A DNA stretch of 64,000 nucleotides, from the NCBI GenBank assembly GCA_903848645.1, contig CAINGU010000059.1, forward strand, positions 55,038 to 119,037, read 5' to 3'. The notes beneath the pieces are model-generated. The model was not told the DNA's origin. It ran no database searches and worked only from the letters and a program-made list of their open reading frames with translations. Source of the DNA: an uncultured cyanobacterium (GTDB taxonomy: Bacteria; Cyanobacteriota; Cyanobacteriia; Cyanobacteriales; Nostocaceae). The position numbers and the translations under genes are program-made. This document shows positions 1-45,894 of the stretch, in pieces; within the stretch, counting starts at the first letter, position 1; every line of letters starts with the position of its first letter.

Positions 1-369
1 AATTCCTTGATTTAGCCAAGTTCGATCTTCAGGTAATAACTCCGATGGAAACCATAAACTCAGAGAATCTCCGGCTAGTATGGTTAATCGCTGGGGATTT
101 TTCTGGGCAGTTATTTTAGCTTCTTGCTTGAGGATATCCAACCATTGGGGATAACTAAGTTTATGACGGGGGCCTAACTCTGGTTGTACATATTGATTTT
201 TCCAGTTGAGTTTAACTGGTTCTGGGCGATCTGCGATAGCTGTGGTTGCTAACACAGGGGTTAGTTTATGCTGTCGCCAAATCAACAAGATGACCGCTAA
301 CATGAGGATAACGTTAGTTAACAGTGCGAAGAATCCCCAAGCAGGAAAGGTTTTTACACGATTAGACAC
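1..369 (-). CDS. GDSL/SGNH-family lipase/acylhydrolase, N-terminal part (runs off the window start)
   Basis: Not in the ORF track. Manual translation from GTG at 369: VSNRVKTFPAWGFFALLTNVILMLAVILLIWRQ...RLTILAGDSLSLWFPSELLPEDRTWLNQGI. It has a TM anchor, the GDSL block I (GDSL) and the start of block II (NQGI). Confidence 0.85.
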   Translation of the reverse strand, partial: MSNRVKTFPAWGFFALLTNVILMLAVILLIWRQHKLTPVLATTAIADRPEPVKLNWKNQYVQPELGPRHKLSYPQWLDILKQEAKITAQKNPQRLTILAGDSLSLWFPSELLPEDRTWLNQGI

Positions 370-410
370 GACTAATAAAAATGACCGATATTAAATTTAA
401 TTGTAAATCT

Positions 411-531
411 GGTAATGGGTAATTGGTAATGGGTAATGGGTAATTGGTAATGGGTAATGGGTAATTGGAGAAGGCATGAAAATATTGCCCCTACACCCCC
501 ACACCCCTAAACCCCTAAACCCCTAAACCCC
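411..531. repeat. STRR-type short tandem repeats (GGTAAT[G/T]G arrays and CCCCTAAA arrays)
   Basis: Tandem ggtaatg/ggtaatt units at 411-468 and acccctaa units at about 488-531, between amt1 and the GDSL gene. Typical of Nostocales. Confidence 0.85.
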
Positions 532-537
532 TGCCTT

Positions 538-1956
538 TTACTTATTAGAAATACGATCAGCAAACTCGGAGTTATAACCTTCTTCCCCGTGTTCATTGAT
601 ATCCAAGCCTTGATCTTCTGTTTGATCTGGGACTCGTAAACCGACTGTAGCCGCAATAATTTTGAGAATTATCCAAGTTCCCACACCAGCAATGATATAG
701 GCTATGGCGATCGCTCCTAGTTCCACAAATAATTCACCGAAGTTACCACGCAATACCCCATCTTTACCGCCGCTATTAACTTCAACTGTGGCAAAGATAG
801 CTGTTAAAATCGCGCCTATCGTCCCACCAACGCCATGGACGGGATAGGTATCCAAGGCATCATCAACCCGCAACTTGTGCTTAAAACTGACAGCAAAGAA
901 GCAGACAACAGAGGTAATAAAACCGATTAAAATTGCGGCTACAGGTGTGACAAATCCGGCGGCTGGGGTGATACCAACTAAACCAGCTACTGCACCTGTG
1001 GCTGCGCCTACTGCGGTGGGTTTTCCTCGCAATGTGGCTTCTAAAATCAACCACATTAATGCGCCGGCGGCTGCTGCTGTATTGGTGGCAACAAAGGCTA
1101 CTGTGGCTACTGTGCCTGCGGATAAAGCACTACCAGCGTTAAAGCCAAACCAACCAAACCAAAGTAAACCAGCACCTAACAAAATAAAGGGGACATTGTG
1201 GGGAGGGCTAAGACGATCTGGATAGTTTTTTCTCGGACCGAGGACAATTGCTGCTACTAACGCCGAAACACCAGAACTAATATGCACTACTGTTCCACCA
1301 GCAAAGTCTAGAGCGCCTATCCCACCAGCTAACCCTAAAAATCCTCCTTTTGCCCAAACCATGTGTGCCAGTGGTGTGTAGATGAAAGTTGACCACAGCA
1401 CTACAAATAGACAATAGGCACGGAAACTCATCCGTTCGGCGATCGCTCCTGAAATTAAGGCTGGGGTGATAATTGCAAACATGGCTTGATAGATCATGAA
1501 TGCTTGATGGGGAATTGTCCCCGCATAGGAATTCATATCAGCATAAGCTGGATCTGCGGCTTTGAGGGCATCTTCATAGCCCATGTGGGGTAAATAGCCT
1601 TGGGTTTCTAAACCTATATTCCCAAACATCCAATTCCAACCACCGATGATCGGGTTACCTGGTGCAAAGGAGAAACTATAACCCCAGAGAATCCAGGTTA
1701 CTCCCACAATTGCCATCAACACAAAACTCATCATTAATGTGTTGAGGATATTATGCGATCGCACAAACCCACCATAAAAGAAAGCTAATCCCGGTGTCAT
1801 TAACAATACTAGGGCTGAGGAAATCAGCATAAATGCTGTATCTCCTGTATTAGCAGCAGGTGCAGCCGCTGGAGCTTCTGCAAAGGCATTTCCTGTTAAC
1901 AACCCTACTAGCAGAAATAGGGTTAAACACCCAATGATAACCACTTTTTTGAACAC
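538..1956 (-). CDS. amt1: Ammonium transporter (Amt family)
   Basis: Motifs DFAGGTVVH, LLWFGWFGFNAGS, DDALDTYPVHG. Probable start is GTG at 1956 with GAGG upstream; the ORF track extends to TTG at 2004. Confidence 0.96.
   Translation of the reverse strand: MFKKVVIIGCLTLFLLVGLLTGNAFAEAPAAAPAANTGDTAFMLISSALVLLMTPGLAFFYGGFVRSHNILNTLMMSFVLMAIVGVTWILWGYSFSFAPGNPIIGGWNWMFGNIGLETQGYLPHMGYEDALKAADPAYADMNSYAGTIPHQAFMIYQAMFAIITPALISGAIAERMSFRAYCLFVVLWSTFIYTPLAHMVWAKGGFLGLAGGIGALDFAGGTVVHISSGVSALVAAIVLGPRKNYPDRLSPPHNVPFILLGAGLLWFGWFGFNAGSALSAGTVATVAFVATNTAAAAGALMWLILEATLRGKPTAVGAATGAVAGLVGITPAAGFVTPVAAILIGFITSVVCFFAVSFKHKLRVDDALDTYPVHGVGGTIGAILTAIFATVEVNSGGKDGVLRGNFGELFVELGAIAIAYIIAGVGTWIILKIIAATVGLRVPDQTEDQGLDINEHGEEGYNSEFADRISNK
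707..714. repeat. HIP1 octamer GCGATCGC (one example of about 20 copies across the window)
   Basis: Seen repeatedly, mostly inside coding sequences. A cyanobacterial genome signature. Confidence 0.9.
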
Positions 1957-2007
1957 TTGTTTTCTTTCCTCTAGCTCTACGATGTTGGTCTTAATTAAAT
2001 ACAATTC

Positions 2008-2021
2008 GTAGTATTTGTTAC
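2008..2021. promoter_or_regulatory. Candidate NtcA box upstream of amt1
   Basis: GTA-gtatttgt-TAC (GTA-N8-TAC), 52 nt upstream of the probable amt1 start. amt genes are established NtcA targets. I see no TAN3T -10 element 22 nt downstream. Confidence 0.5.
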
Positions 2022-2309
2022 TTTTTTCTGTCTTAAAAGCTACTCAACTTTTAATTTTGCAGTAAGCTTAACAAAAATATTATCTTTTATGTAACTTAAT
2101 ATTTGCATAGGTATTGATTTTATGATGAAATATTTACATATTGTACTGATGTAAAAAATAGCCTCTTCCATAACTCAGGGAGAGATTAAAATAAAAGTAC
2201 AACTATGAAAAATTGCTTGCTGTCCATACAATATAGACAATTATTCTTAATAATACAGTCCTCTTTAACTGTGTAAAATCTTATCTACCCAATCAAAATT
2301 CTCTTAGTT

Positions 2310-3131
2310 ATGCAATTAGGGATGAAAAAACATAATACTCTAAATAATGCTGCTAAATTAACTGCTTTGCTATGTTTACTCACCATCTTGCTCACGCCTT
2401 GTGTGATAGTTAATGCTGGTGAGCGTGGCGTATTAATGAAGTTTGGTCAAGTCCAAGAACAGATATTAGGAGAAGGTATTCACTTAATTATCCCTGTGAT
2501 CAATACAGTCAAAAAAATTAGTATCAGAATTCAAAAGCAGGAAATATCAACTGAAGCAGCTTCTAAAGATTTGCAAAATATTTTTATAAATGTAGCTCTT
2601 AATTGGCATTTTTTCCCAGATAAAGTTAATAGAATATTTCAACAAATTGGTGATGAGAATCAAGTTATTGAATCTATTATAAATCCAGGAATTGAAGAAG
2701 TATTAAAAGCAGTTATTTCCCAATATACTGCTGAAGAAGTAATTACAAAACGCGGGGATGTTAAGAGAGAGTTAGATCAAGCCCTAACTGTAAGATTAGG
2801 GACTTATAATCTAGAAGTTAATGATATTTCCTTAGTTCATATTCGCTTTTCTGACAAATTCAGAGCAGCAGTAGAATCAAAACAAATTGCCGCACAGGAA
2901 GCAAAGCGGGCTGAATTTATTGCCTTAAAAGCAGTGAAAGAAGCAGAAGTGAAAGTGAATTTAGCAAAAGGAGAAGCAGAGGCTCAAAGCTTGCTCAGAG
3001 AGGTTTTGACACCGGAATTATTACAAAGACAAGCGATAGAAAAATGGAATGGAAAGCTACCGCTAATTATGGGTAAAGATAATTTGAAGCTTTGGAATAT
3101 TCAGGATTTAATTACAGGTAGTGAAAATTAA
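2310..3131 (+). CDS. SPFH/prohibitin (band 7) family membrane protein
   Basis: N-terminal TM segment, then VNAGERGVLMKFG, SKDLQ and a C-terminal coiled coil (AVESKQIAAQEAKRA). Confidence 0.92.
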   Translation: MQLGMKKHNTLNNAAKLTALLCLLTILLTPCVIVNAGERGVLMKFGQVQEQILGEGIHLIIPVINTVKKISIRIQKQEISTEAASKDLQNIFINVALNWHFFPDKVNRIFQQIGDENQVIESIINPGIEEVLKAVISQYTAEEVITKRGDVKRELDQALTVRLGTYNLEVNDISLVHIRFSDKFRAAVESKQIAAQEAKRAEFIALKAVKEAEVKVNLAKGEAEAQSLLREVLTPELLQRQAIEKWNGKLPLIMGKDNLKLWNIQDLITGSEN

Positions 3132-3164
3132 CTTCTGGGGAATATTGGGAAGTAATTCTATCTA

Positions 3165-3611
3165 TCACCCATTGGTAAATAAAATGGGAGTATCAATAAT
3201 CTTCAACTGAATTAAAAGTACAATTAGTAATGTATATATAGTTGAAGAAATGAGACTGTTAAATAACTCTTTTTTGAGATTACGCTCTTGATTTTCTTTT
3301 TGCAACATATCTACTGATCCAAACTGCATCAACAGTATACCTAGAATATTTGATAGCCAGTAGCCAAGAATAGTACAAGGAAAAAGCAATTTAGGCGATA
3401 ATAAACTACATAAATACCCAAAAAAGTAAGCAATGGGTAGGTTAAATAATAAGTCATTCCACCAACATAGAGGAGAAAGCAAGTATCCCAACACTAACAA
3501 GAATCCACCTCTGAGTTTCTTCCAAATGTTCATGCTTGGCTGTGCTAAAGAGATTTGTGTGTTTTCGCTATTGATACTGACTTTTGGACTTTCTGCTTGG
3601 ATGTTGGTCAT
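3165..3611 (-). CDS. Hypothetical membrane protein
   Basis: 148-aa ORF with several hydrophobic segments and an LSPLCWWNDL motif. Co-directional with the upstream tauE-DUF1634 genes. Confidence 0.75.
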   Translation of the reverse strand: MTNIQAESPKVSINSENTQISLAQPSMNIWKKLRGGFLLVLGYLLSPLCWWNDLLFNLPIAYFFGYLCSLLSPKLLFPCTILGYWLSNILGILLMQFGSVDMLQKENQERNLKKELFNSLISSTIYTLLIVLLIQLKIIDTPILFTNG

Positions 3612-3704
3612 AAAACTACACTAATTCTATCGTCTTAGTGTAGTTTAACTTAAGAAGTGAGAAAATGTCCAACATTGAGCAATAGTCATGAGTTGTGGAA
3701 AATA

Positions 3705-4262
3705 TTAGTAATATGCGCCAAGTAGACTATAGGTTAGACTAGCAAGCACTAATGATGTAATGACGACATAGATAAAATTTCGCTGTAAAAGAAAAGTGCA
3801 GAAAGAAATGATCACCCGCAAAATGGGGATAGCAATTAGTATTAACAGCCCTAACTGAATAATTCCCCTTCTGCTACCTGCAAAAACAGCATTCACTACA
3901 CCTATGGGGGAGTGAAACTCAGATGGTGTGCCTATAAAGACTTGATATTCCGCTGGCTCAGAGCCATGATGAATTAAATATAGTATACCCCCGAATAATA
4001 CTATAGAACTAGCGATTAAAACTCCATACTTTAGGAGGTTACTGAGTAAATATTCTAATTGTTTTTCATTTGCTGATTTTGTGAGTTTTTGATGACTAAA
4101 ATTTTCATCATCATGATTTACATTTGCTGCATGATGAAGATGATGTTTTTCTAACTCTTGAATATCACAATCTCGCTCCTCTAATTCAAAAGTGAAAGCT
4201 CCAATTTCTCTTTCTATCTGTGTTGTGCAAGTCCAGCGAAAACCAGAATTTAATTTATACAT
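3705..4262 (-). CDS. DUF1634-family membrane protein with His-rich N-terminal extension
   Basis: C-terminal LLKYGVLIAS...IIQLGLLILIAIPILRV is typical of DUF1634. It starts 2 nt after the tauE stop, the usual TauE-DUF1634 pairing. Confidence 0.85.
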   Translation of the reverse strand: MYKLNSGFRWTCTTQIEREIGAFTFELEERDCDIQELEKHHLHHAANVNHDDENFSHQKLTKSANEKQLEYLLSNLLKYGVLIASSIVLFGGILYLIHHGSEPAEYQVFIGTPSEFHSPIGVVNAVFAGSRRGIIQLGLLILIAIPILRVIISFCTFLLQRNFIYVVITSLVLASLTYSLLGAYY

Positions 4263-4264
4263 AA

Positions 4265-5101
4265 TTACAGCCCTCCTATTAGACTGTTATAGACCATTTT
4301 TAATGCCATTACTACCAATACAAAGCTGAAGATAATTCTTAAAATTTGGGTTTTAGCACCAATTAAAATTCTCGCTCCTAAAAAAGCACCTGGTAACACT
4401 CCCAACATCACCGGCATAGATAAACCTGGATCTATGTATCCCTGGGTTAAATAAACACCTGCTGAGGCTGCGGCTGTGACACCAATCATAAAATTGCTGG
4501 TGGTAGTAGAAACTTTAAAAGGGAGACGCATGGCTTGGTCCATAGCCAATACCTTGAATGCTCCCGAACCAATTCCTAATAAACCAGAAAGCACTCCTGC
4601 TACCAGCATAATACTAAAACCAGCAGGTAAGGCATGAACTTGGTAAGGGATTACACCGTCACCAGTAGGGTAAGTACCATTAAGCTGGAGATATTCTGCT
4701 AAGGGGTCTGGTGGAGAAATTTCTGTTTGTTCTGGTCTGGGGCGTTGAGACAGGTATGCTGAATAAATTAGCACAATAGCCAAAATTAAGGAAAGTATTT
4801 TTACGGTTACATGAGTGGCAATGAGAGCGCCAATCAAAGCTCCAATGGTGGTGGCTACCTCCAGAAACATCCCCAAGCGCAGATTAGCGTAGCCTTTTTT
4901 AATATACGTAGAGGCTGAACCTAATGATGTAGCAATCACTGATACTAATGATGCTCCAACGGCATAGCGAATATCAACACCAAAGACGGAAGTTAATAAC
5001 GGAACTATGACGACTCCACCACCTAACCCAGTTAATGCTCCGACTAACCCGGCACTAAATGATCCCAACCAAACCAGTAAAGAAAATGCTAGTATGCTCA
5101 A
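4265..5101 (-). CDS. TauE/SafE (TSUP) family permease
   Basis: Repeated GALTGLGGG and SGLLGIGSG motifs, KVSTTTSNFMIG, about 8 TM segments. Confidence 0.92.
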   Translation of the reverse strand: MSILAFSLLVWLGSFSAGLVGALTGLGGGVVIVPLLTSVFGVDIRYAVGASLVSVIATSLGSASTYIKKGYANLRLGMFLEVATTIGALIGALIATHVTVKILSLILAIVLIYSAYLSQRPRPEQTEISPPDPLAEYLQLNGTYPTGDGVIPYQVHALPAGFSIMLVAGVLSGLLGIGSGAFKVLAMDQAMRLPFKVSTTTSNFMIGVTAAASAGVYLTQGYIDPGLSMPVMLGVLPGAFLGARILIGAKTQILRIIFSFVLVVMALKMVYNSLIGGL

Positions 5102-5180
5102 TTTGAATTCCTCTTTTTTTAGTCTATATTTATGATGCCTAGATAATTTTTGTCAGCAGGATGTAAATAGAAAACTTCAT

Positions 5181-5819
5181 TTATCTATGCAGAAGATTGA
5201 AGACACTAAAACTATGACTATCGAGGAAGATAAAAGTACCTAATCCGATTAAGATAAAGGGCATAAAACGATTTCCATATTTAGTAAAGATATCAGCGAT
5301 CGCTTGATTGTGAGTTAACTTATGTGCTACATAACACAACACCCCCACCAATGAAAAGAAAACACCCAAAATTACTAATAGACTTTGCCAATTACTGCTG
5401 GCAAATATCGGCACATAAATACTAATGTTATCCGTTCCATTGGCAAATGTGACAGCCGCAACACTATAAGTTTGCAAATTGAAAAATCTCGCTATTAGCG
5501 ATTCCTGAGAAACTTTTGTTTCTGTCTTTGCGTCCTCTAATTCATCTGTTTCTCGATTCATTAAACTCTTGATGCCAATGATAATTGGGACTAAGCCAAA
5601 TAAACCAATCCAGGGACGGGGTAAAATTAATCCGCCGAAAAAACCAGGCAAACTAGCCAAAATCAAAGCCGTAAAACCTAAATATTGACCAATAATAATA
5701 TGCCAGCGGCGAAACTTAGCATCCACCTGAGAGAAAAACAAAGTCAGGATGACTAAATCATCAATATTTGTGGCACTAAAAGCCATTGCTCCGGTACTAA
5801 TTGCAGTTACTACACTCAT
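5181..5819 (-). CDS. cadD: CadD-family (cadmium resistance transporter-like) membrane protein, paralog 1
   Basis: FSATNIDDL, GQYLGF and ANGTDNISIYVP motifs. Probable start is ATG at 5819. Confidence 0.88.
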   Translation of the reverse strand: MSVVTAISTGAMAFSATNIDDLVILTLFFSQVDAKFRRWHIIIGQYLGFTALILASLPGFFGGLILPRPWIGLFGLVPIIIGIKSLMNRETDELEDAKTETKVSQESLIARFFNLQTYSVAAVTFANGTDNISIYVPIFASSNWQSLLVILGVFFSLVGVLCYVAHKLTHNQAIADIFTKYGNRFMPFILIGLGTFIFLDSHSFSVFNLLHR

Positions 5820-5913
5820 AACGATTTTAGATTTTGAATTTTCGACTATCAAAAGATATTGAGTAAGGATTAATGTTGATCCTTCCCAATTACCAATTAC
5901 CTATTTCCAACCC

Positions 5914-7368
5914 TTAATAATTATTTCTTTCTGCGAATCGGGCATGAATATCATCAACTCTTTGGCGAATTCCTGCTACTAAATGGGGAGAACGCTGTTT
6001 TTTGATAAAGAACCAACCGCAAGTAACAGAAAGATACAACAAGAACAAGTAAGGAAAGGTATTATAAGGAGCTTCCGGAATGGGAAATAGGCTACTACCA
6101 GGAATCCCCACACTACCTAAAACTGGGATCATCATAAAGGCTACAGCTAAGACGGCAAATACAATATCTATGGCACGAAGTTTGCTGATTTTGTATAAAT
6201 AGACTGGAGCAGCAACGGAAATCAGAATATAAACAGTTAAAAATCCATAACTACAAATAGCCCCCAAATAGCCCATACAATCGAATAGTTTGATGTGAAA
6301 GAAGGACATCATTGCGGGGATTAAAAATGTCAATAGCGAACACATCGTGACGGCAATATGAGGTGTTCTATTGGCTGCGTGGGCGTTACCTAAAGAGGCA
6401 TGAAACAAACCATGACGAGCCATTAAAAAAGCTACTCTAGCCGCAGGATTGATACTACCAAGAATGCAAGCAAAGAAACTAAACAACGCTCCTAACGCTA
6501 CCAATTCTCCCAAAAAACCCACTCCTGCTTGTCGGGAAAGGAAACCCAAAGGTTCTTCGGTGTCTTTAATTGAGATTCCTGTACCTTGAAAACCCAGAAT
6601 TTCTATATAGGTGGTGGAAATAAAAAATAGCCCTGCAAGGATAACACTACCCATAACGGCTCTAGGTATGGTGCGTAATGGCTTTTTAGCTTCATCACCC
6701 AAGCTAGTCGCACTTTCAAAGCCAGAAAAACCAAACATTACTAATACAAGTCCTGTGGCTACACTACCAGGAGTAACACCAGAAAGGGTGATTTGAGACA
6801 TATCGACAGCAAAGCCTTTGTGCGCCCAAATGATGATACATAAGATACTTATCAACACGAGGGAAGCACCTTCTAACCAAAGCATAGCTACAGCCGAAAG
6901 TTGGATATCTTTGTAAGCTGCATACCAGGAAATCCCTGCACCAATGGCTAACAGTGTGATGCTAGAAGGATGAATACCCAAATGACCAATTAGCATTCCA
7001 CTAAAATTAGCAAATCCGCACAGAACGGACATTCCTGTAAATAAATAAGCCAGCACTAAACTCCAACCGCAAACTACTCCTGCTGTTGGTCCTAAGCCTT
7101 GGGTAATGTAGGAATAGAGAGAACCAGGAGACGCGGAACGACTAGCAAATTGGTTAATGTTAATGCTGACTAACATTAGTCCAATCAACCCAATCACAAA
7201 ACTTAGCCAAGTTCCATTTCCTGAAAGTGCCACAATTAAACCGATATTAGATGCTGGTATGGTTGTGGGGGCAATTACAGCAAATGATTGGGCTAATACT
7301 TCCGAAAAAGATAGGCAATTTGACCTTAATCCATGAATACTTTGATGGGAAGATATTTCTTTGTTCAT
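5914..7368 (-). CDS. APC-superfamily amino acid/amine permease
   Basis: About 12 TM segments. Motifs SPGSLYSY and FSGFESATSLGDEAKKPLRTIPRA. Confidence 0.92.
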   Translation of the reverse strand: MNKEISSHQSIHGLRSNCLSFSEVLAQSFAVIAPTTIPASNIGLIVALSGNGTWLSFVIGLIGLMLVSININQFASRSASPGSLYSYITQGLGPTAGVVCGWSLVLAYLFTGMSVLCGFANFSGMLIGHLGIHPSSITLLAIGAGISWYAAYKDIQLSAVAMLWLEGASLVLISILCIIIWAHKGFAVDMSQITLSGVTPGSVATGLVLVMFGFSGFESATSLGDEAKKPLRTIPRAVMGSVILAGLFFISTTYIEILGFQGTGISIKDTEEPLGFLSRQAGVGFLGELVALGALFSFFACILGSINPAARVAFLMARHGLFHASLGNAHAANRTPHIAVTMCSLLTFLIPAMMSFFHIKLFDCMGYLGAICSYGFLTVYILISVAAPVYLYKISKLRAIDIVFAVLAVAFMMIPVLGSVGIPGSSLFPIPEAPYNTFPYLFLLYLSVTCGWFFIKKQRSPHLVAGIRQRVDDIHARFAERNNY

Positions 7369-8197
7369 TTTAGGGTTTTATGGTTATGGTAAATGACACA
7401 TAATTTGATAGGCTATGGAGAATTATTGATATTTGTCTGATGAATATCTATAAGGCACATTTGTTCATGTTGATTGTGGACAAATGTAATGTAAAGTTTT
7501 CCGTGGGTGTGATGATTTTAGTTTTTGACTCTGCGGTCATAAAATCCGCATATTCATTACACTCTAGCTACTTTAAGTTAGATATTTTAGGCTGGTTATA
7601 TCAATTGTTTGTAAGTCGTAATGGGAAATTTTCCGGGTTATAGATCCTTAAGTGCCAAGTTTTGATAACTTTTGCATCTATGGATACATTTGAATTCAGG
7701 AACTGTGTTTATCTTGACAAATTAAATACTACCTTATCTGTTCGTCGTAAGCAAGTGTTAGATGAAAAATATTTTTAAGCTTGTATCTATAATTTATGAA
7801 TCCCACAAAGTATATCGGAGTTAGTGCTATTTAATTTTAATTAATTATTTGTTTTTATTTCAATAAAATAAGTATTATAAAATACTACATAATCATGCTT
7901 TTATTGGTGGTGTTTTGTGCTTAAATCATTTGTAAGTCTTACTTTAAAAGACAAAACAGGCTAAATATTTATTTACTCTCACGTAAATACTGAGTGTAAT
8001 ACAAATACAGCTAATCTTGTTGCCAACATAAACTGATGATGGTAACTTGATAAAGTAAATTAATTCACGATCAAAACAAAACGGTAATTTTACAGATTTA
8101 TTTTGAAAAGAAAATTAATCTTTCTACCTGATTGTCATCTGAACTACTTTTTTTCATAGTCATTCAGTTAAACATTGCCACAAGGGAAATTACTACC

Positions 8198-8851
8198 ATG
8201 AAAAGCTTGAAGTGTATATTGGTTGTTGCATTGTTGTGTCTCAGTCTAGTATTTACTGAATCTGCACTAGCTGATCCACCAAGATACAATAAAAATCCTG
8301 ATTACATCACATTAACTGAACAACTGAACCAATTAGAAACTGCGAAAGCTACACAAACTCCATTAGCAGGTTATACATCAGAGCAAATTGACCAAAAAAT
8401 TAATGATTTACAGTTTCAAAAATTTGCTTTTGAGTCAGGAATTGACTGGGGACAATGTAGTAATCAAACAGGGAAAACTCTAGCTATATATGGTACAGAA
8501 CCAAATTTACAAAAAAATAATCACTCCAATGGAGCAGCATTATATTTTTTAGGTGATAATCAAACTACAAAAGATAGATGGAATTGTAAAGGAATATATC
8601 TACCCACAGATGTTCAAGCTGTAGCTTTAGGGTTAAATGGACTAACAGAAGAAGTAACTGGTGGTGTTGTTATTAAAGTTCCTAATGGTACTAAATTAGT
8701 CTTGAGAAAAAATCCAGATACTAGCGCAATTGAATTTAATCAAGTGGGGACAGAAATTCTTAAAGCTGGTGAGATTAACTGGTTTGTTCCTAATGTTACC
8801 CAAGCAGTTGTAGATACAAAAGTTACTAACGCACCTGCTAAAAAAGCTTAA
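8198..8851 (+). CDS. Secreted hypothetical protein
   Basis: ATG at 8198 opens a Sec signal peptide (MKSLKCILVVALLCLSLVFTESALA, ending A-L-A). The 192-aa mature region has two Cys. Confidence 0.85.
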   Translation: MKSLKCILVVALLCLSLVFTESALADPPRYNKNPDYITLTEQLNQLETAKATQTPLAGYTSEQIDQKINDLQFQKFAFESGIDWGQCSNQTGKTLAIYGTEPNLQKNNHSNGAALYFLGDNQTTKDRWNCKGIYLPTDVQAVALGLNGLTEEVTGGVVIKVPNGTKLVLRKNPDTSAIEFNQVGTEILKAGEINWFVPNVTQAVVDTKVTNAPAKKA

Positions 8852-8861
8852 TGGTCAGTTA

Positions 8862-8897
8862 GTAGGTTGGGTTGCGTTGTTGCTTAACCCAACCTAC
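8862..8897. repeat. GTAG-type REP-like hairpin (possible terminator)
   Basis: Perfect 12-bp inverted repeat GTAGGTTGGGTT...AACCCAACCTAC just after the stop codon. Same family as 40098-40173. Confidence 0.8.
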
Positions 8898-9132
8898 TCA
8901 ACTCATTTTTCATTAACCTAGACTTTTACAAGATGACGTAAAACCTAGATGTGTAGGGGTCAAGTAAAAGCTAAACCCATACCTATGGAATCAAATGATT
9001 AAGCCATGTTGAGTATATCGTCGTCCAGACAGGAGAAATAATTGGCTGCGGAGTCGTAAAAATCAGGAAATCCTCACTAAAACAACTTTATAGATACTGG
9101 TACTAGACATTTTATTATTTATAAGTTTATAA

Positions 9133-9148
9133 TACAGTAAGTTGATAG
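9133..9148 (+). promoter_or_regulatory. Candidate Rrf2 operator, site B
   Basis: TACAGTAAGTTGATAG, 13/16 identical to the site at the Rrf2 start (12249-12264). Confidence 0.55.
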
Positions 9149-9181
9149 AGATGCCGTAGTTTTTATCAAGAATGGCAGAAA

Positions 9182-9292
9182 CTAGTACACTGCGGCGTAA
9201 GTTAATGGACTATTCTCAATCGTTCAAAAGCTGATTTCATATTACTTTTGACTTTTGATTTTTGACTTTTGACTTCCGCCCTGCGGTACTAG
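9182..9292. mobile_element. MITE-like element with CTAGTAC...GTACTAG termini
   Basis: Terminal inverted repeats and an internal TTTTGAC array. A homologous inverted copy lies at 50141-50237. Confidence 0.7.
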
Positions 9293-9468
9293 GGTTGTGA
9301 TTACAACTTGGTATCAAAAATTACACTTTAAAAGTAATAAAAGTTTACTTACAAGATTTATAAATAGTCATCTTGAACAAACTTAGACGGCGATTTTTTG
9401 TATTCATAAAATTAAGTCTATCCAAACCTATCTTCTTCATTTTTCAACTAACTTACATTAATACGAGT

Positions 9469-10266
9469 ATGGACTACTTATTACTACCAGGTTTCAGCTT
9501 TTTTATTGGCATCATTGTGGGTTTAACAGGTATAGGTGGTGCATCTTTGATCACTCCCATGTTGATTTTTGTTTTTCAAGTCCCACCTTCTATTGCTATC
9601 AGTTCTGATGTGGTTGCAGCCACATTAATGAAAGTAGTAGGGGGAGTGAAACACTGGCAACAGAAAACTCTTGATTTAGAAATAGTTAAATGGCTATCAA
9701 TGGGTAGTGTTTCTGGTTCTTTATTGGGTGTAGGAGTTTTATCCCAACTCAGACAAAGTGGAGAACATAACCTCGATAACCTCTTGCTGCGGTTACTGGG
9801 AGTCATGATTCTGATAGTGACATTGACAGCATTAATACAAATGTTGTTGATGACATTTTTCCCGAAAGTTAATTTACCCGAACTGCCAAAATTAAATTTA
9901 AAAACCAATCAAGGACGTTTTCTGACTTTACTTATTGGCGCAATTTTAGGCTTTTGTGTGGGGATGACAAGCGTTTCATCAGGCTCTATGTTTGCCTTAG
10001 CTTTGATCGCATTTTTCCAGTTAGATGCCCGAAAATTGGTGGGTACAGATATTACTCAAGCCGCCATTTTACTAATATTTACGTCTCTGGGACATCTAAC
10101 TTTAGGAACTGTTGATTGGAGTCTAGTCATACCTATTTGGATAGGTTCTGTTCCTGGAGTTCTTATTGGTGCTAAACTTTGCGACATTACTCCTCAACGT
10201 CCACTAAGATTTATTATCTATAGTATCTTAATGATGGTAAGTTGGAAATTAGTCGCACAAGCGTAA
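9469..10266 (+). CDS. TauE/SafE (TSUP) family permease, second subfamily
   Basis: VGLTGIGGASLITP, GMTSVSSGS and LVGTDI motifs. Probable start is ATG at 9469. Confidence 0.92.
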   Translation: MDYLLLPGFSFFIGIIVGLTGIGGASLITPMLIFVFQVPPSIAISSDVVAATLMKVVGGVKHWQQKTLDLEIVKWLSMGSVSGSLLGVGVLSQLRQSGEHNLDNLLLRLLGVMILIVTLTALIQMLLMTFFPKVNLPELPKLNLKTNQGRFLTLLIGAILGFCVGMTSVSSGSMFALALIAFFQLDARKLVGTDITQAAILLIFTSLGHLTLGTVDWSLVIPIWIGSVPGVLIGAKLCDITPQRPLRFIIYSILMMVSWKLVAQA

Positions 10267-10289
10267 TTACCTTCGTACATCTTTGAATT

Positions 10290-10937
10290 TTAATTTCCCT
10301 GCCCAAATAATAGATTAAATGTCCCTCGTTCATACATAATAAATAGCCCCAAACCAATTAACACAAAAGGGACAATAGCCTGACCATAGCGACTTAAAAT
10401 ATAACCAATGTTAGCTTGACGATTTAATAAATCAGCGATACCGCACCAAATCCCTACCATGCCAAAAAATACTACCAAAATTATTCCTAAACCAACAATA
10501 TCTTGACCTGCAAATAGGGGGATGTAAATACTAATATTATCACCCCCATTGGCAACTGTTACAGCCGCAACTTTATAAGTGTTTGGATGTAAAATGCTTG
10601 ATAAAAAAGAAGATTGAGGGCTATTCTGTTCGGTATTCACTGTCTGAACTTCTCCACTTTCTTCTGCACGATTTACTAATTGCTTGATGCCAATAGCAAT
10701 TGGTAATAATCCTAGTAATCCAATCCATTTTTCTTCTATGACTAAGCCACCAAAGAACCCTGGTAAGCTGAGGATAATAATGGCTGTAAAGCCAATATAT
10801 TGACCGATAAAAATATGTCTACGGCGAAAATTTCTATCTATTTGCGAGAAAAATATTAACAGAATCATGATGTCGTCAATATTAGTAGCGGCAAAGGCAA
10901 TTATGCCTTCTGTAAAAGCAGTAGCAAGCCTATTCAT
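10290..10937 (-). CDS. cadD: CadD-family membrane protein, paralog 2
   Basis: FAATNIDDI, GQYIGF and ANGGDNISIYIP motifs. Confidence 0.88.
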   Translation of the reverse strand: MNRLATAFTEGIIAFAATNIDDIMILLIFFSQIDRNFRRRHIFIGQYIGFTAIIILSLPGFFGGLVIEEKWIGLLGLLPIAIGIKQLVNRAEESGEVQTVNTEQNSPQSSFLSSILHPNTYKVAAVTVANGGDNISIYIPLFAGQDIVGLGIILVVFFGMVGIWCGIADLLNRQANIGYILSRYGQAIVPFVLIGLGLFIMYERGTFNLLFGQGN

Positions 10938-11043
10938 GGTAAACTTGGATAATATACTCTTTAGTAAGAAGTCAGGAGAGGAATTTAAAAAGAAGTCATA
11001 ATAATTGTAACTCTAAATTTAAATTTTATTAAACTTATCTAAA

Positions 11044-11721
11044 ATGAACAATTTATTGACAGCAATTATCACAGGAGTAGTTGCTTTCATTGCCACTAAT
11101 ATTGATGATATTGTGATTTTGTTGGTGTTTTTTTCGCAAGTAAATGAGAATTTTCGCCCTTGGCAAATTGTTGTTGGTCAATATTTAGGTTTTACTATTC
11201 TCGTCATCTTGAGTTTACCTGGTTTATTTGGTGGGCTGATTTTGCCTCAATCATGGATTGGTTTACTAGGCTTAATTCCTATCGCTATTGGTATGAGTAG
11301 CTTAGTGAATAGAGAAACAGAACAATTAGCTGATGTTCCAGAAGATATAATACCATCTGCTACATCAACAAACAATTATTTTTTAACACCACAAATTTAC
11401 ACTGTGGCAGCAATAACTGTGGCGAATGGTAGTGATAATATTAGTATTTATATACCGTTATTTTCTAGCACTCAATTAGAGAGTTTTTTAATAATTATTG
11501 GGTTATTTTTTCTCCTTTTAGCAGTTTGGTGCTATATAGCATATCAGTTAACCCATCAGCAAAAAATAGCTGATTTTTTTACCAATTATGGTAATTATCT
11601 TGTGCCGTTTGTGCTGATGGGTTTAGGGGTTGTAATTGTATGGAAAAGTAAAGCTTTAAATCCGTTAAAACTCCTTGGTAGTTGTATTTGTTTGTTGGTT
11701 TTAGTAAAAAAGGACAATTGA
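11044..11721 (+). CDS. cadD: CadD-family membrane protein, paralog 3
   Basis: FIATNIDDI, GQYLGF and ANGSDNISIYIP motifs. Divergent from paralog 2. Confidence 0.88.
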   Translation: MNNLLTAIITGVVAFIATNIDDIVILLVFFSQVNENFRPWQIVVGQYLGFTILVILSLPGLFGGLILPQSWIGLLGLIPIAIGMSSLVNRETEQLADVPEDIIPSATSTNNYFLTPQIYTVAAITVANGSDNISIYIPLFSSTQLESFLIIIGLFFLLLAVWCYIAYQLTHQQKIADFFTNYGNYLVPFVLMGLGVVIVWKSKALNPLKLLGSCICLLVLVKKDN

Positions 11722-11775
11722 CAAATGAGCAATGATATTTTTTGCTATTTCCATCACCATACTTATTGATAACCA

Positions 11776-12258
11776 CTAAATGTAATACATGGGATTATAT
11801 TGGGCGCGAATCTCTCTTTCTTGACATAAATCTTGGAGTGTATAGCCGCGCAAAACCTCAATCGAAGCCGCGTTAGCTTGCTGCCAGATTTCCAGAACTA
11901 AAATTTTTTCTATGGTTGGAGTCTCGGAGCTTTCTTTCTCTTTCCGTTCACCTTCCACCAAGGTAACAATTTCTAGCAAAGTAATTTGCCAAGGCTCACG
12001 CATTAATACGAAACCTCCTTTTGAGCCACGTTGACTCTGTACTAAACCGGCACGTCGCAGTTGAGTGAGAATTTGTTCAAGATACCGTTCCGGGACGGGT
12101 TGCTTGGCGGCAATCTCGTTCATGGTTAGGGGAACTTTTTTATCGTGATGTCTGGCTAGTTCTAACAGTGCTAGGAGCGCATATTCCACTTTCGCCGAAA
12201 GATCCAGAAGAGCATAGTTTTGACTATTCAAATCTGTATTCAGAATACTACTGTACAT
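11776..12258 (-). CDS. Rrf2-family transcriptional regulator (CymR-like)
   Basis: KVEYALLALLEL, YLEQIL and SQRGSKGGFVL wHTH motifs. Only one Cys; C-terminus PMYYI. The true start may be TTG at 12231. Confidence 0.93.
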   Translation of the reverse strand: MYSSILNTDLNSQNYALLDLSAKVEYALLALLELARHHDKKVPLTMNEIAAKQPVPERYLEQILTQLRRAGLVQSQRGSKGGFVLMREPWQITLLEIVTLVEGERKEKESSETPTIEKILVLEIWQQANAASIEVLRGYTLQDLCQEREIRAQYNPMYYI

Positions 12259-12264
12259 TGATAG
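12249..12264 (+). promoter_or_regulatory. Candidate Rrf2 autoregulatory operator, site A
   Basis: TACTGTACATTGATAG overlaps or immediately precedes the Rrf2 start codon. Confidence 0.6.
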
Positions 12265-12525
12265 ATTTATCGGCTTTTAACCGCAATTAGTTTTATTTTA
12301 AGTGTTAAATGTGATATTATCACACTTGCACTAAATAAAGTATCATAACTCTATCGGATTTAAGGTGATTATCTGCAAAATTCTCAAAATTGCTTAACAC
12401 TCACTTGTCGCACTTCATTTTACAAGAGAAATACAAGTATTAAAATTTACTATATTTTATCTTGTATATACTTGAATGTCATTGGTAATTAATCTGCACA
12501 ACATCCCTGGCTTTTGCTTGTGAAA

Positions 12526-12570
12526 ACCAATTACCAATTACCAATTACCTATTACCTATTACCTATTACC
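12526..12570. repeat. STRR heptamer array (ACCAATT/ACCTATT)
   Basis: About six tandem heptamers; they also encode the last codons (GNR-stop) of the CHASE2 kinase. Confidence 0.85.
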
Positions 12571-14762
12571 AAAGATTTCAAATCATGAAGCACTGCTGTA
12601 GCTGATTGATAGCGATCGCTAAAATGGTAACAAACCATCTTATCTAAAATTGCAGCTAATTTTGTATTAACACTGATCTGATTTTGCCAAACAAAGTTAC
12701 CTGTATGGGGATTAATTTTGAGTTCTTGGGGAGGGATTCCTGTAATTGCTTGAATACCCATCATTCCCAAAGCATAAATATCACTACACAAGCGGGGATG
12801 ACCAGCAAATTGTTCCGGTGGTGCATAACCTTTTGTGCCAATAGCAATTGTTACTGCTGCTATAGATTCATTGATTGATGGCTGGATAAATTTAACTGCA
12901 CCAAAGTCTATTAATACCAATTTATTATTATGAATACATCTCATGATATTTGTCGGTTTAATATCTCGATGAATAACATGATGTTGATGTACAAATACCA
13001 AAATTTCTAATATCTCCTGGAGCATGGAAATAACAAACTCTTCACTTTTGCCATTTTGTTCAGGAGATAATTCTTCACTTAACGTATGTCCTTGAATATA
13101 TTCTTGAACTAAATAAAATTCTTGATTGTCTTCAAAATAAGCCAGGAGTTCGGGAATACAGGGATGTTTGCCTAATGTAGCTAAGATTTCAGCTTCAGTA
13201 TAAAATAATCTGCGGGCTATTTGTAAAAATTTATCATCCTGACGAGCCGGCATTAACTGTTTGACGACACAAATAGGCTCACCTGGACGATGATGATCTT
13301 GAGCTAAATAAGTGCGGCCAAAGCCACCAGCACCAAGGGTTTGTACGATTTGATAACGGCCACCTAATAATAATCCCCCGGTTTTTAATCTAGATATAGA
13401 TGTTTCATATTTAGTAGTAGGGTGATCAGAAATAGATTGTAGTAATGTAGTTTGATTTAATAGTAAATTTAACTGAGAAATTGCTTCTTTTTGTTGTTCA
13501 ACTTGTAAAATAATCCCTTGATTTTTCTGAGTTGTGTAACCCACGATGACAAAACTACCCATGATCAAACTAATCATAGGAGGAATCAAAGGTATCCAAA
13601 TGCCTTGGAGATATAAACCAGCAGCAATTCCCAGCAAACCCATGAGCAGAAAACTAGTCATCACTAGCAACATGAAAATATGTCGCCACTGCCATGCTAA
13701 AATTGCCCCAATTAGAGACCAAACCCAAATCCAACATAATTCCAATTGATCTGGCCAGTAATAAATTAGCGATCGCCCATCTAAGACTGTACTAATAATT
13801 TGACTAGCTATTTGGGCATGAATAAACATCCCAGCTATTCTTGCTGGTTGATCTGGGAGAGAACTGTAGGGAGTATAATAACCAGGATGGACACTATAAG
13901 CAGTAGTTCCAATAATAACTAACTTATCTTTTACCCAATTGGGGTTAACTTGATCTTGGAGAACTTGTGTTAAGGTAACTTGTTGAGCCAGGTGATCAAA
14001 ATGGCGATAATTTAACAGAATTTGGTAGCCGTTAGCATCTGTATTCTGATAACCACCAGCATTTTTATCTAAGCGAGGAAATACTGTTTTGCCAATTTCT
14101 AATTCTTGATTTTCATTAAAATTATATTTAATGCCTTGTTTTTCTAAATAATTAATGGCTAATAAACTAGCAAAGGAAAACTGGGTTACACATTTATTAT
14201 CTGTATGTGTAACTTCAGAAAATAATAAACTCCGGCGCAAAACTTGATCAGTTTCATTATCAGCAAGGACATCATTAAAACCCACATTCTCCATCGGGAA
14301 GTTAGGAGGTGGGGGAACTTCTGATCTACCAATATTGCTTAATAAACAAGTGGTGAAAATATTTTCTTTTTTTGGTAAATTAATTCCTAAATTCTTTTGT
14401 TCTGGACGATAAATATTTAAACCAATTACACGGGGTTGATGAGATTTTAATTTAGCTAATAATGTATTAATAGTTTTGTCAGATAAAGGCCATTTCTCTT
14501 GTTTGAGATCCTCTTCTGTAATTGTGACTAATAAAATCCGCCCATCTGCGGGTTCTAAAGGACGCGATCGCAACATTAAATCATAAGCACCTAACTCCAA
14601 TTTTTGCAACCATTTCAGTTCTCGTACTCCCCAAACTAACCCTGTTACCCCTATACTCGTTAGAAAAATGACAATTAACCAATTATAGGCAGCAACACTA
14701 CCAAAAGAATCCTGAGTTTTGAACAACCCAGTCCTAAATTTTGCAAGAATTCCCTTAATCAC
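12552..14762 (-). CDS. CHASE2-domain Ser/Thr protein kinase
   Basis: Extracytoplasmic CHASE2 region (DGRILLVTITEEDL, GMFIHAQIASQII), 3 TM segments, and a kinase domain with GAGGFG, HRDIKPTN, DFG and GYAPPEQ. Confidence 0.95.
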   Translation of the reverse strand: MIKGILAKFRTGLFKTQDSFGSVAAYNWLIVIFLTSIGVTGLVWGVRELKWLQKLELGAYDLMLRSRPLEPADGRILLVTITEEDLKQEKWPLSDKTINTLLAKLKSHQPRVIGLNIYRPEQKNLGINLPKKENIFTTCLLSNIGRSEVPPPPNFPMENVGFNDVLADNETDQVLRRSLLFSEVTHTDNKCVTQFSFASLLAINYLEKQGIKYNFNENQELEIGKTVFPRLDKNAGGYQNTDANGYQILLNYRHFDHLAQQVTLTQVLQDQVNPNWVKDKLVIIGTTAYSVHPGYYTPYSSLPDQPARIAGMFIHAQIASQIISTVLDGRSLIYYWPDQLELCWIWVWSLIGAILAWQWRHIFMLLVMTSFLLMGLLGIAAGLYLQGIWIPLIPPMISLIMGSFVIVGYTTQKNQGIILQVEQQKEAISQLNLLLNQTTLLQSISDHPTTKYETSISRLKTGGLLLGGRYQIVQTLGAGGFGRTYLAQDHHRPGEPICVVKQLMPARQDDKFLQIARRLFYTEAEILATLGKHPCIPELLAYFEDNQEFYLVQEYIQGHTLSEELSPEQNGKSEEFVISMLQEILEILVFVHQHHVIHRDIKPTNIMRCIHNNKLVLIDFGAVKFIQPSINESIAAVTIAIGTKGYAPPEQFAGHPRLCSDIYALGMMGIQAITGIPPQELKINPHTGNFVWQNQISVNTKLAAILDKMVCYHFSDRYQSATAVLHDLKSLVIGNR

Positions 14763-24439: not shown

Positions 24440-25525
24440 TTAGCGTCGTCCACGTTGAATTTTGTCAAATATAGCACCATCAGCAAATAATTTTTTCTGG
24501 ACACCACTCCAACCGCCAAGATCACCTACAGTATAAAGTCTGGCAATATAGGGGAATTTATTTTTTACTTCTTTGGAGACAGTTGGGTCAACTGGACGGA
24601 AACCAACTTTAGCAAATTCACGCTGTGCTTCTGGAGTGAAAAGGAACTTGACGAAAGCTTCAGAAACCTCACGATTTCCATGCTTATCAACATTTTTATC
24701 CACAACTGCCACAGGTGCATCTATAGAAATATTGACTGGAGGAACTATGTAAGAAGTATCTGTTTTGCCTTGCTGTGCAGCTAAAATCACTTCGTTTTCA
24801 TAGTTTAGTAATACATCACCTTGACCTTTTTTGTAAAAAGCATCACTTGATTCCCTGGCATCTTTAGGTAGGGCTACTACATTTTTAAACACATCTGTTA
24901 CAAACTTCAACGCCTGGGTTTCATTTCCGCCATTTTTAACGACTGAACCCCATAAAGCGAGAAAATTCCATTTAGCCCCACCAGATGTCTTGGGATTTGC
25001 AGTCACAATCTTAACATCAGGCTTTGTTAAATCAGCCCAATTCTTGATCTTTTTCGGATTACCAGCGCGAGTTTCCAGTGCAACTACTGAACGGGTAACA
25101 ATTGCGTTATTTGGAGATTCCTTTTCCCAACCTGGTTGAATCAAGCCAGCTTGTTCAATTTTTTTAATGTCTCCAGCCAATGCTAAAGCTACCACATCTG
25201 CGCCCAAACCATCAATAACAGCGCGGGTTTGCGAGCCAGAACCACCGTAACTCTCTTTAATCACCACTTCTTGACCTTTTTCTCTTTTCCATTTTGCCAC
25301 AAAATCGGGAATGATTTTAGCGTAAGCGGCCTTGGTGACTGCGTAAGAAACTAAAGTAATTTCAACTTTTTTGCCACTTTGACTCATTAGTTGTGTTTTT
25401 TGGGCTGTACCTGCAAATACAGGCATAATAGTGCTTATACTTAAACCTGTGGCTAAGAATAAAGCAGGAAATAACGGCTTTGTTGTTTGTAGGAATTTTG
25501 CAGGGTTTGAAGAATTATCTGTCAT
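24440..25525 (-). CDS. sbp: Sulfate/thiosulfate-binding periplasmic protein, paralog without a lipobox
   Basis: SYGGSGSQTRAV, NPKTSGGAKWNFL and NYENE motifs. Signal peptide ends V-F-A with no Cys. Confidence 0.93.
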   Translation of the reverse strand: MTDNSSNPAKFLQTTKPLFPALFLATGLSISTIMPVFAGTAQKTQLMSQSGKKVEITLVSYAVTKAAYAKIIPDFVAKWKREKGQEVVIKESYGGSGSQTRAVIDGLGADVVALALAGDIKKIEQAGLIQPGWEKESPNNAIVTRSVVALETRAGNPKKIKNWADLTKPDVKIVTANPKTSGGAKWNFLALWGSVVKNGGNETQALKFVTDVFKNVVALPKDARESSDAFYKKGQGDVLLNYENEVILAAQQGKTDTSYIVPPVNISIDAPVAVVDKNVDKHGNREVSEAFVKFLFTPEAQREFAKVGFRPVDPTVSKEVKNKFPYIARLYTVGDLGGWSGVQKKLFADGAIFDKIQRGRR

Positions 25526-25566
25526 GGGATGTCCTTAAATTGGTTTGAATATAATCTACGAAAACT

Positions 25567-25582
25567 CTGTCGAGATACAGTA
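25567..25582 (-). promoter_or_regulatory. Candidate Rrf2 operator, site C
   Basis: Minus strand reads TACTGTATCTCGACAG, 12/16 identical to site A, 42 nt upstream of the sbp start. Confidence 0.5.
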
Positions 25583-45858: not shown

Positions 45859-45894
45859 TTAAATACGTTTAATCTATTGATTTATTTAAATTTA

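Follow-up and report, generated by a model that had tools for sequence, protein, structure and literature searches.

Sulfur-limitation control in cyanobacteria is poorly defined. CysR-dependent induction has been known there genetically since the 1990s. The CysR protein, a member of the Crp family, was reported to be needed for induction, and no binding site for it is known (PMC12016511; PMC11420160). In Staphylococcus aureus, the Rrf2-family regulator CymR ends in YMFYI, and that pentapeptide alone binds to the active site of CysK (O-acetylserine sulfhydrylase), where it competes with O-acetylserine and has nanomolar affinity (bioRxiv 10.1101/2024.09.19.614015). In the DNA complexes of NsrR, IscR, and RsrR, the recognition helices contact DNA around ±5 to 8 and the wings lie in the minor groove at the ends (PMC9338935). 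The subject of this study was a 64,000-nucleotide stretch of DNA from an uncultured cyanobacterium (contig CAINGU010000059.1; this whole stretch is called the window), which carries a gene cluster containing rrf2, a gene for an Rrf2-family regulator. A preliminary description of this DNA had proposed a 16-bp motif, TACWGTAnnTYGAYAG, as the Rrf2 operator. We found that the motif is part of a 26-bp two-fold symmetric element, which is most likely an operator, i.e., a regulator-binding site on sulfur-gene promoters of filamentous cyanobacteria. Its best explanation, which we hold to be reasonably probable, is an operator of a sulfur and cysteine regulon that would be bound by the cluster Rrf2 protein together with CysK, with repression as the outcome.

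The motif had been drawn from two 16-mers, TACAGTAAGTTGATAG at 9133–9148 and TACTGTACATTGATAG at 12249–12264, both on the + strand; their positions and their identity at 13 of 16 bases were given correctly. The second 16-mer overlaps the rrf2 ATG (12258–12256, minus strand). Nine intergenic segments of the cluster (2175 nt) contained 90 16-mer pairs identical at 13 or more bases, where shuffled sequences gave 64 on average and 101 at most. Because pairs of this kind are common in the intergenic DNA of the cluster, similarity within the window is by itself no evidence. The pattern TACWGTAnnTYGAYAG has a third exact match in the window, at 25567–25582 on the − strand, 25 nt upstream of a sulfate-binding-protein gene; the expectation of zero for exact matches is post hoc, the pattern having been derived from these same two 16-mers. 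When three mismatches were allowed, 17 matches were found against 16 expected, which is background, and TTGATAG alone was barely enriched in the window (18 occurrences vs 11.5 expected). As judged from sequence, the case for a motif beyond chance rests on comparative data and not on the 13/16 match.

Both 16-mers are the left 16 bp of a symmetric site with the structure TACnGTA-N12-TACnGTA, in which each heptamer is itself palindromic and the two heptamers start 19 bp apart. The 16-bp motif was therefore accurate for positions 1–16, but the second heptamer had been overlooked. The consensus of the 26-bp quasi-palindrome is TACGGTAAnTYGATMGnnTTACCGTA with A/T-rich flanks (extended form, AATACGGTAAnTYGATnGAtTTACCGTATT), and the ideal form, TACGGTAAnTCGA joined to TCGAnTTACCGTA, is a palindrome over all 26 bp. 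Column statistics showed a conserved center, T10-Y-G-A-T-M-G16, and flanks of TAAA(C/A) and TTTA; they agreed on the features of the motif with an independent set of sbp sites and with a set of perfect sites, and the sbp set taken alone displays both heptamers. GTA (positions 5–7) and TAC (20–22) are 12 bp apart, and conserved bases reach ±12.5 from the center. Throughout, a TAnAnT hexamer abuts the left heptamer, and T1 of the motif is the final base of that hexamer.

Conservation was examined in a comparison set of 80 rrf2 loci from Nostocales. The gene order rrf2–cadD3–cadD2–tauE2–sec (sec being the secreted-protein gene) is conserved among the fetched loci. Upstream of tauE2, about 40 genomes share a −35-like TAGAC(n)TTT, a spacer of 17–18 nt, TAAAAT or TATAAT, and then ACGGTAAGt..aTCG..tTACCGg.tTTTa; the core that follows TAAAAT is ACGGTAAG..TCG..TTACCG. 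The site at the rrf2 start has an orthologue in 78 of the 80 loci, read on the window + strand as ATACTACGGTGAATTGAGGGACTTATCGC in Nostoc and ATACTACTGTACATTGATAGATTTATCGG in the window's clade, and the promoter-like + strand sequence associated with it aims at a divergent cysE or crp-like gene in relatives. A second, strong class of site, ACTACGGTAAGTCGATAGAGTTATGAT, is on the same strand as rrf2 and some 107 nt upstream of it (70/80 loci, scores 34–43), and a third lies directly upstream of the divergent Crp-family gene. For sulfate-binding-protein genes, the 700 nt upstream of 80 sbp-2 orthologues was scanned for matches of at least 10 bits; 62 orthologues had a match, compared with 0.48 in shuffles. 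In most of these the site is at a fixed position, −52, including those of Microseira, Calothrix, Tolypothrix, and Heteroscytonema. Dolichospermum, Cuspidothrix, and Anabaena have orthologues of the sbp-1 site, scoring as high as 35, at about −460 with respect to sbp-2. The motif is thus kept in orthologous promoters and enriched over background, as the preliminary description had called for.

The window was scanned at a threshold of 12 bits or more with a 38-column matrix built solely from other genomes, sbp loci being left out of it. Eight matches were found in six places (some on both strands), compared with 0.11 expected under a first-order Markov null; intergenic DNA alone gave four matches against 0.03 expected. 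Five sites in the window appear credible, two of them before the divergent sulfate-binding-protein genes (Table 1). A match at 45858–45895 (score 15.1, acr3/nif3-like junction) is rich in A and T and lacks heptamers; we attribute it to chance. In the tauE2 site the left heptamer is TACAGTA and the right is TGCCGTA (5/6 specified bases), and T1 is the last base of the predicted −10 box in TAGACA(9104–9109)-18-TATAAT(9128–9133), an 11/12 match; tauE2 is the probable regulated gene downstream. The rrf2-start site has a weak right heptamer (3/6), is oriented away from rrf2, and follows, on the + strand, the promoter-like TTGACT(12220–12225)-18-AATACT(12244–12249). The orf148 site lies within perfect 12-bp inverted arms, AAACTACACTAA and TTAGTGTAGTTT, followed by TTTTAT, and could double as a terminator of the upstream DUF1634 gene. 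The divergent intergenic region between cadD2 and cadD3 (10938–11043) gave no site in the matrix scan.

Other sites of the preliminary description did less well. The CGATAG variant at 12351–12366 (− strand) does sit at the position of the site that is strong upstream of rrf2 in relatives, but the site is decayed here; it retains a CGATAGAGTTATGATA block, which resembles CGGTAGAGTTGTGGGA upstream of the rrf2 gene on the Synechococcus elongatus plasmid pANL. The weak TTGATA sites near 8038, 7396, and 5846 are present as written, but their best matrix scores are −12.6, −15.6, and −20.1, respectively, and the TTGATA part is not kept in orthologues; chance is the best explanation for all three. At 8038–8048, upstream of the secreted-protein gene, a GATGGTAAnTT block is partly conserved in six genomes and resembles a single half-site (GGTAA) with no partner heptamer.

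Table 1 Genes and candidate operators in the window
Feature	Positions	Strand	Sequence	Remarks
orf148, membrane protein	3165–3611	−		
Variant candidate operator directly upstream of orf148	3617–3642	−	TACACTAAGACGATAGAATTAGTGTA	Matrix span 3611–3648; matrix score 16.8
DUF1634 gene	3705–4262	−		
tauE1	4265–5101	−		
cadD1	5181–5852	−		
APC permease	5914–7368	−		
Secreted protein (sec)	8198–8851	+		
Candidate operator in tauE2 promoter	9133–9158	+	TACAGTAAGTTGATAGAGATGCCGTA	With flanks 9127–9164; matrix score 28.7
tauE2, TauE/SafE-family permease	9470–10266	+		Pfam TauE, 3e-41
cadD2	10290–10937	−		
cadD3	11044–11721	+		
rrf2, 160-aa Rrf2-family regulator	11776–12258	−		Pfam and NCBIfam
Candidate operator overlapping rrf2 start codon	12249–12274	+	TACTGTACATTGATAGATTTATCGGC	Matrix span 12243–12280; matrix score 32.8
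Decayed site upstream of rrf2 (CGATAG variant)	12341–12366	−	ACCTTAAATCCGATAGAGTTATGATA	Score −0.2; left heptamer lost, only right part survives
sbp-1, sulfate ABC transporter substrate-binding protein	24440–25525	−		
Candidate operator 25 nt upstream of sbp-1	25557–25582	−	TACTGTATCTCGACAGAGTTTTCGTA	Matrix span 25551–25588; matrix score 14.0
Candidate operator 20 nt upstream of sbp-2	25967–25992	−	TACGGTTAATTAATAAAAATACCATT	Matrix span 25961–25998; matrix score 14.0
sbp-2, sulfate-binding protein	26013–27125	+		Followed by cysT and cysW
cysT	27282–28151	+		
cysW	28138–28977	+		

The distribution of perfect copies was determined by scanning one genome per GTDB species for WWTACGGTA-N12-TACCGTAWW. 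At least 120 loci matched, and 52 of the 120 listed were cyanobacterial, which points to strong enrichment of perfect copies in cyanobacteria across GTDB. Among the matches listed, the cyanobacterial sites came from Nostocales, Microcoleus, Phormidium, Leptolyngbya, Egbenema, Elainella, Scytonema, and Stigonema, and nearly all were intergenic with a motif-like, informative spacer; in the 68 non-cyanobacterial matches listed, the spacer carried no information, and about a third were inside open reading frames. The genes adjoining the cyanobacterial perfect sites include sbp, ssuA (SsuA_fam, 253 bits), ssuB, ssuE (232 bits, above the cutoff), the taurine dioxygenase gene tauD, an SfnG/SsuD-like monooxygenase gene, a rhodanese/sulfurtransferase gene, cysE, the Crp-family gene, and an orf148 homologue. 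The last, from Leptolyngbya sp. BL-A-14 (55% identity), is preceded by a perfect site at a distance of 5 nt. Matches thus precede sbp, cys, ssu, and tau genes, in agreement with the enrichment at cys, sbp, and tau genes that had been predicted, and the element appears to mark the sulfur-acquisition and cysteine regulon of filamentous cyanobacteria. The set of APC permease, cadD1, secreted-protein, and orf148 genes also adjoins motif sites in Leptolyngbya sp. BL-A-14 and Phormidium tenue. The APC permease, secreted-protein, and orf148 genes, the three CadD-like paralogues, and the two TauE paralogues may be sulfur-related.

The candidate binder encoded in the cluster, Rrf2, is a winged helix-turn-helix protein that matches Pfam PF02082 over residues 20–146 (1.3e-34) and TIGR00738 with 112.6 bits (cutoff 73.3). 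Its closest solved structures are 4CIC and then B. subtilis CymR (2Y75); IscR is also among its PDB relatives. Rrf2 has a single cysteine, in QDLCQER, and its homologues have none to three, mostly one. It therefore has no Fe-S ligands, the three cysteines of IscR, NsrR, and RirA being absent. The protein ends in PMYYI (codons 11776–11790), and MYYI is the terminus of 117 of 120 homologues; this end may be a CysK-docking tail, as in CymR. In 73 of the 80 relatives, cysK lies directly downstream of rrf2 in an apparent rrf2-cysK operon. The analogy with CymR and CysK that had been drawn beforehand is strengthened by this gene arrangement and by the invariant tail.

A 40%-identical Rrf2 protein ending in MFYI is encoded in the sulfur-regulated region of pANL. 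The matrix gave no strong match on pANL (46 kb), only weak ones; two of the three best flank rrf2, at 9880–9917 and 10537–10574, and one weak site, ACCGGTAGACCAATCAAGTTTTAGGG, matches the tauE2 site of Anabaena azotica at 18 of 26 positions. The weak sites beside rrf2 are suggestive of a motif shared with that plasmid.

The form and placement of the element were then compared with those of Rrf2-type operators. The 26-bp span, the conserved ends, and the less conserved center of about 10 bp fit the solved complexes of NsrR, IscR, and RsrR (PMC9338935). The element also has two-fold symmetry, a length within the range of about 23–27 bp, conserved outer halves, and A/T ends (the TAAA/TTTA flanks), as is characteristic of Rrf2-type operators. 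Many sites end 5–25 nt before start codons (sbp-2, orf148, the crp-like gene), which leaves no space for a downstream promoter. Because many sites overlap the −10 box or adjoin start codons, repression is suggested, and the placement appears to be that of a repressor. On the grounds of operator geometry, site position, protein features, and the wider association with sulfur genes, we favor the cluster's CymR-like Rrf2 as the probable binder, with moderate confidence. The element put forward as the Rrf2 operator is a real cis-element of the cluster, but its assignment to Rrf2 is inferred; the Crp-family gene that shares the cluster in most Nostocales also carries a site, so that a site at its own gene does not set either regulator apart.

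Several observations weigh against this assignment and against repression. The best named NCBIfam model for Rrf2 is CymR (NF047409), and the score of 94.8 bits is below the cutoff of 195; the protein is CymR-like in its features and is not a CymR equivalog by that cutoff. The published CymR box of B. subtilis is not known to resemble the present operator. In 61 of 80 loci the Crp-family gene is conserved together with rrf2; it keeps its site even when relocated and is present in the closest relative. Control of cysK and cysE is an equally good reading of the sites beside rrf2, and in the window rrf2 lacks a neighboring cysK and has a decayed upstream site of its own. The transcription start sites are predicted positions; the sequence was sought in RNA runs and was found in DNA metagenomes alone. 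Finally, the A/T flanks that resemble −10 boxes are symmetric and may be part of the motif itself.

From the motif, its conservation, symmetry, and gene associations, and the features of the protein, we infer a binder, a direction of regulation, and an effector, as follows. A dimer of the CymR-like Rrf2, without an Fe-S cluster, would bind the 26-bp site while complexed with CysK through its C-terminal MYYI tail. Under sulfur sufficiency, Rrf2-CysK on the operators would block RNA polymerase at tauE2, sbp-1, sbp-2-cysTW, orf148, and rrf2 and, in relatives, also at rrf2-cysK, cysE, and the crp-family gene. A block to transcription is proposed because the sites cover −10/+1 or lie just upstream of start codons. 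Under sulfur limitation, O-acetylserine would accumulate and displace the tail from CysK, and the regulon would be derepressed, including, in relatives, the gene for the Crp-family activator. The rrf2-start site in the window could be a roadblock or initiation block for rrf2, or a remnant of a promoter facing cysE. Autorepression there, as claimed earlier, is plausible, but the site points away from rrf2 and faces the divergent cysE in relatives; because the upstream rrf2 site of the window is decayed, autoregulation here is uncertain.

The best-surviving alternative, which we consider unlikely, is that the Crp-family, CysR-like regulator encoded in the cluster of most Nostocales binds the motif, and that Rrf2 is merely a member of the regulon or acts elsewhere, e.g., at TGTGAT-N3-ATCACA beside its own gene. 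The usual Nostocales locus has a NIL-domain gene, the Crp-family gene, and cysE on one strand and rrf2 and cysK on the other; beside rrf2, cysE was found in 62 of 80 loci and the Crp-family gene in 61, where it adjoins both cysE and rrf2. The crp-like gene always has a site directly upstream, even when relocated, and also in Phormidium. The closest relative without an adjacent Crp-family gene has one on another contig, still with a site. The two regulator genes co-occur from Nostocales to Phormidium and the filamentous strain CCP2, and phyletic patterns do not separate the candidates. Sites for Crp, Fnr, and NtcA consist of inverted pentamers or triplets 4–8 bp apart and have a core of 14–16 bp with conserved bases 4–8 bp from the center, whereas the conserved bases of the present motif are 6–12 bp from its center and the center is conserved too. 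The recognition helix of the Crp-family protein, TRVTITR, is NtcA-like and the motif contains GTA...TAC, but such a helix predicts GTA-N8-TAC, and the distance here is 12 bp, so that the motif does not have the form of a Crp/Fnr/NtcA site. CysR is the sole genetically established cyanobacterial sulfur regulator, which speaks for a protein of this kind, with its regulon and site undefined as of 2024 (PMC11420160; PMC12016511). It is, however, reported to be required for induction, and many of the elements abut start codons or, as judged from the predicted start sites, −10 boxes and are not at the activator positions −41.5 or −61.5, from which a −10 box would be expected about 22 nt downstream. 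At −41.5 of the tauE2 promoter, no GTA-N8-TAC was seen by eye in the alignments; no systematic motif search was made.

Binding by a third regulator encoded outside the cluster, e.g., of the LysR, GntR, or ArsR type, would also make the element a real operator. With palindromic heptamers 19 bp apart, the element could also accommodate a tetramer or a pair of dimers, and the link of either cluster regulator to the DNA is indirect. Both cluster regulators, however, are co-conserved with the motif from Nostocales to Leptolyngbyales, and conservation near the sites extends to no further regulator gene: one of the TetR family is limited to some Nostoc loci. We regard an outside regulator as improbable.

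A promoter or leader feature, such as the −10/discriminator of an alternative sigma factor, an RNA hairpin, an attenuator, or a terminator, is very improbable. The constant TAnAnT hexamer against the left heptamer, the 7-bp inverted repeat followed by a T run in the Nostoc tauE2 copy, and the 12-bp arms followed by TTTTAT in the orf148 copy would all fit such a feature. But the site can face either way with respect to the gene, being inverted at sbp-2 and rrf2; the right arm is lost in several genomes in which the left arm and center persist; the hairpin is not conserved in some of the genomes; and the predicted start site is inside the left arm, so that the RNA could not form the hairpin. Rfam covariance models gave no match at E ≤1 to 7300–12700 on either strand, and two-fold symmetry that includes the flanks is typical of dimeric DNA-binding proteins. 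Chance resemblance in AT-rich intergenic DNA, which would account for the common 13/16 intergenic matches (90 vs about 64 in shuffles) and the background frequency of the 3-mismatch pattern, is contradicted for the two main sites by the comparative conservation and enrichment and can be dismissed for them.

Binding by Rrf2 could also be combined with a role for CysR. In a two-tier circuit, Rrf2-CysK would sense O-acetylserine by way of the MYYI tail and repress both the scavenging regulon and the CysR gene, and CysR-dependent induction would lie downstream of Rrf2 derepression. We put this forward only tentatively, as a possibility with the odds somewhat against it. If it is true, the element is an undescribed cis-element of the cyanobacterial sulfur-starvation response, and a role related to sulfur would also fall to the uncharacterized genes that accompany the motif all the way from Nostocales to Leptolyngbyales, namely the CadD-like, TauE, DUF1634, APC-permease, secreted-protein, and orf148 genes.

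The window itself belongs to Nostocales: the best rrf2 orthologues are 92–94% identical and are from Dolichospermum and Anabaena. Its rrf2 locus is rearranged. Four genes found around rrf2 in most Nostocales, namely cysK, cysE, and those for the Crp-family and NIL-domain proteins, are absent from the 64-kb window; cadD3 is convergent 55 nt downstream of rrf2 (11722–11775 between them), and a Ser/Thr kinase gene is upstream (region 12259–14762 examined). The rrf2 reading frame has a 19-codon N-terminal extension (12202–12258) that begins with ATG solely in the clade of the window; five codons farther downstream there is an in-frame TTG in Nostoc. Most substitutions in the extension are synonymous, and its opposite strand holds TTGACT-18-AATACT (12220–12249), facing cysE in other genomes; this DNA may serve two purposes.

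Between the decayed upstream site and the rrf2 start there is a perfect palindrome, TGTGAT-ATT-ATCACA (12310–12324). About 58 of the 80 rrf2 loci hold a single TGTGAT-N3-ATCACA in the corresponding position (in Nostoc, TGGGATGCTATCACA) and have it nowhere else. As a single copy beside rrf2 it was rejected as a regulon-wide motif. Its possible roles include that of a second operator, of an extended −10 (TGnTAATAT), and of a hairpin in the 5′ untranslated region. Farther upstream of rrf2, CCAATTA/CCTATTA heptamers are repeated at about 12527–12572, and short tandem repeats of the TTTTGAC type are found at about 9246–9276 in the tauE2 leader. Both look like cyanobacterial insertions of the short tandemly repeated repetitive (STRR) type. 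The tauE2 leader is unusually long, about 330 nt compared with about 130–230 nt in most relatives checked. On the 3′ side of the secreted-protein gene, at 8860–8905, a long GC-rich inverted repeat (AGTAGGTTGGGTT...AACCCAACCTACT) is followed by a T run; it is likely an intrinsic terminator that parts this gene from the tauE2 promoter.

A literature search found no paper on a cyanobacterial Rrf2, on a cyanobacterial sulfur operator, or on the function of an MYYI-tailed Rrf2 (RegPrecise and subscription journals were outside its scope), and the database names of the Rrf2 homologues are merely "Rrf2 family". The kind of system, a sulfur-regulon repressor operator with CymR-like logic, is known; the cyanobacterial site, its range, and its regulon appear to be undescribed. 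A 26-bp site that can be scanned for allows regulon prediction in filamentous cyanobacteria, including the bloom-forming Dolichospermum and Anabaena. The site nominates a CymR-like, CysK-coupled sensor outside the Firmicutes, ties the CadD-like, TauE, and DUF1634 transporter families to sulfur metabolism, and renders the division of labor between Rrf2 and CysR directly testable.

Among the known systems, the LysR-type regulators CysB and Cbl of enterobacteria have the same target functions (sbp/cysPTWA, ssuEADCB, tauABCD, and cysK), but they belong to another regulator family, follow an activator logic, and have sites with no similarity to the present one. The NtcA box, GTA-N8-TAC, shares its GTA and TAC triplets with the element, and the helix of the cluster Crp-family protein is NtcA-like; the element differs in its N12 spacing, its position at −10 or the start codon instead of −41.5, and its association with sulfur and not nitrogen genes. 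The regulon of CysR in S. elongatus PCC 7942 is physiologically the same, comprising sbpA, cysTW, and the srp genes of pANL, and the homologous Crp-family gene of the Nostocales cluster carries a site, but in its geometry the motif is unlike the sites of that family. The operators of NsrR, IscR, and RsrR are alike in their length of 23–26 bp, two-fold symmetry, conserved outer parts, less constrained center of about 11 bp, and A/T-rich ends (PMC9338935); they differ in sequence, and here the TYGATMG center is itself conserved and the protein lacks the three cluster-binding cysteines. Unlike CymR, the cyanobacterial Rrf2 has a 19-residue N-terminal extension, is usually encoded in an apparent operon with cysK, and is paired with a Crp-family regulator. 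It has in common with CymR of the CymR-CysK system of B. subtilis and S. aureus the Rrf2 fold that lacks Fe-S ligands and the M(F/Y)YI tail at the C terminus; its proposed regulon likewise covers the uptake of sulfur, the use of sulfonates, and the synthesis of cysteine, and its putative operator is likewise long, about 26–27 bp.

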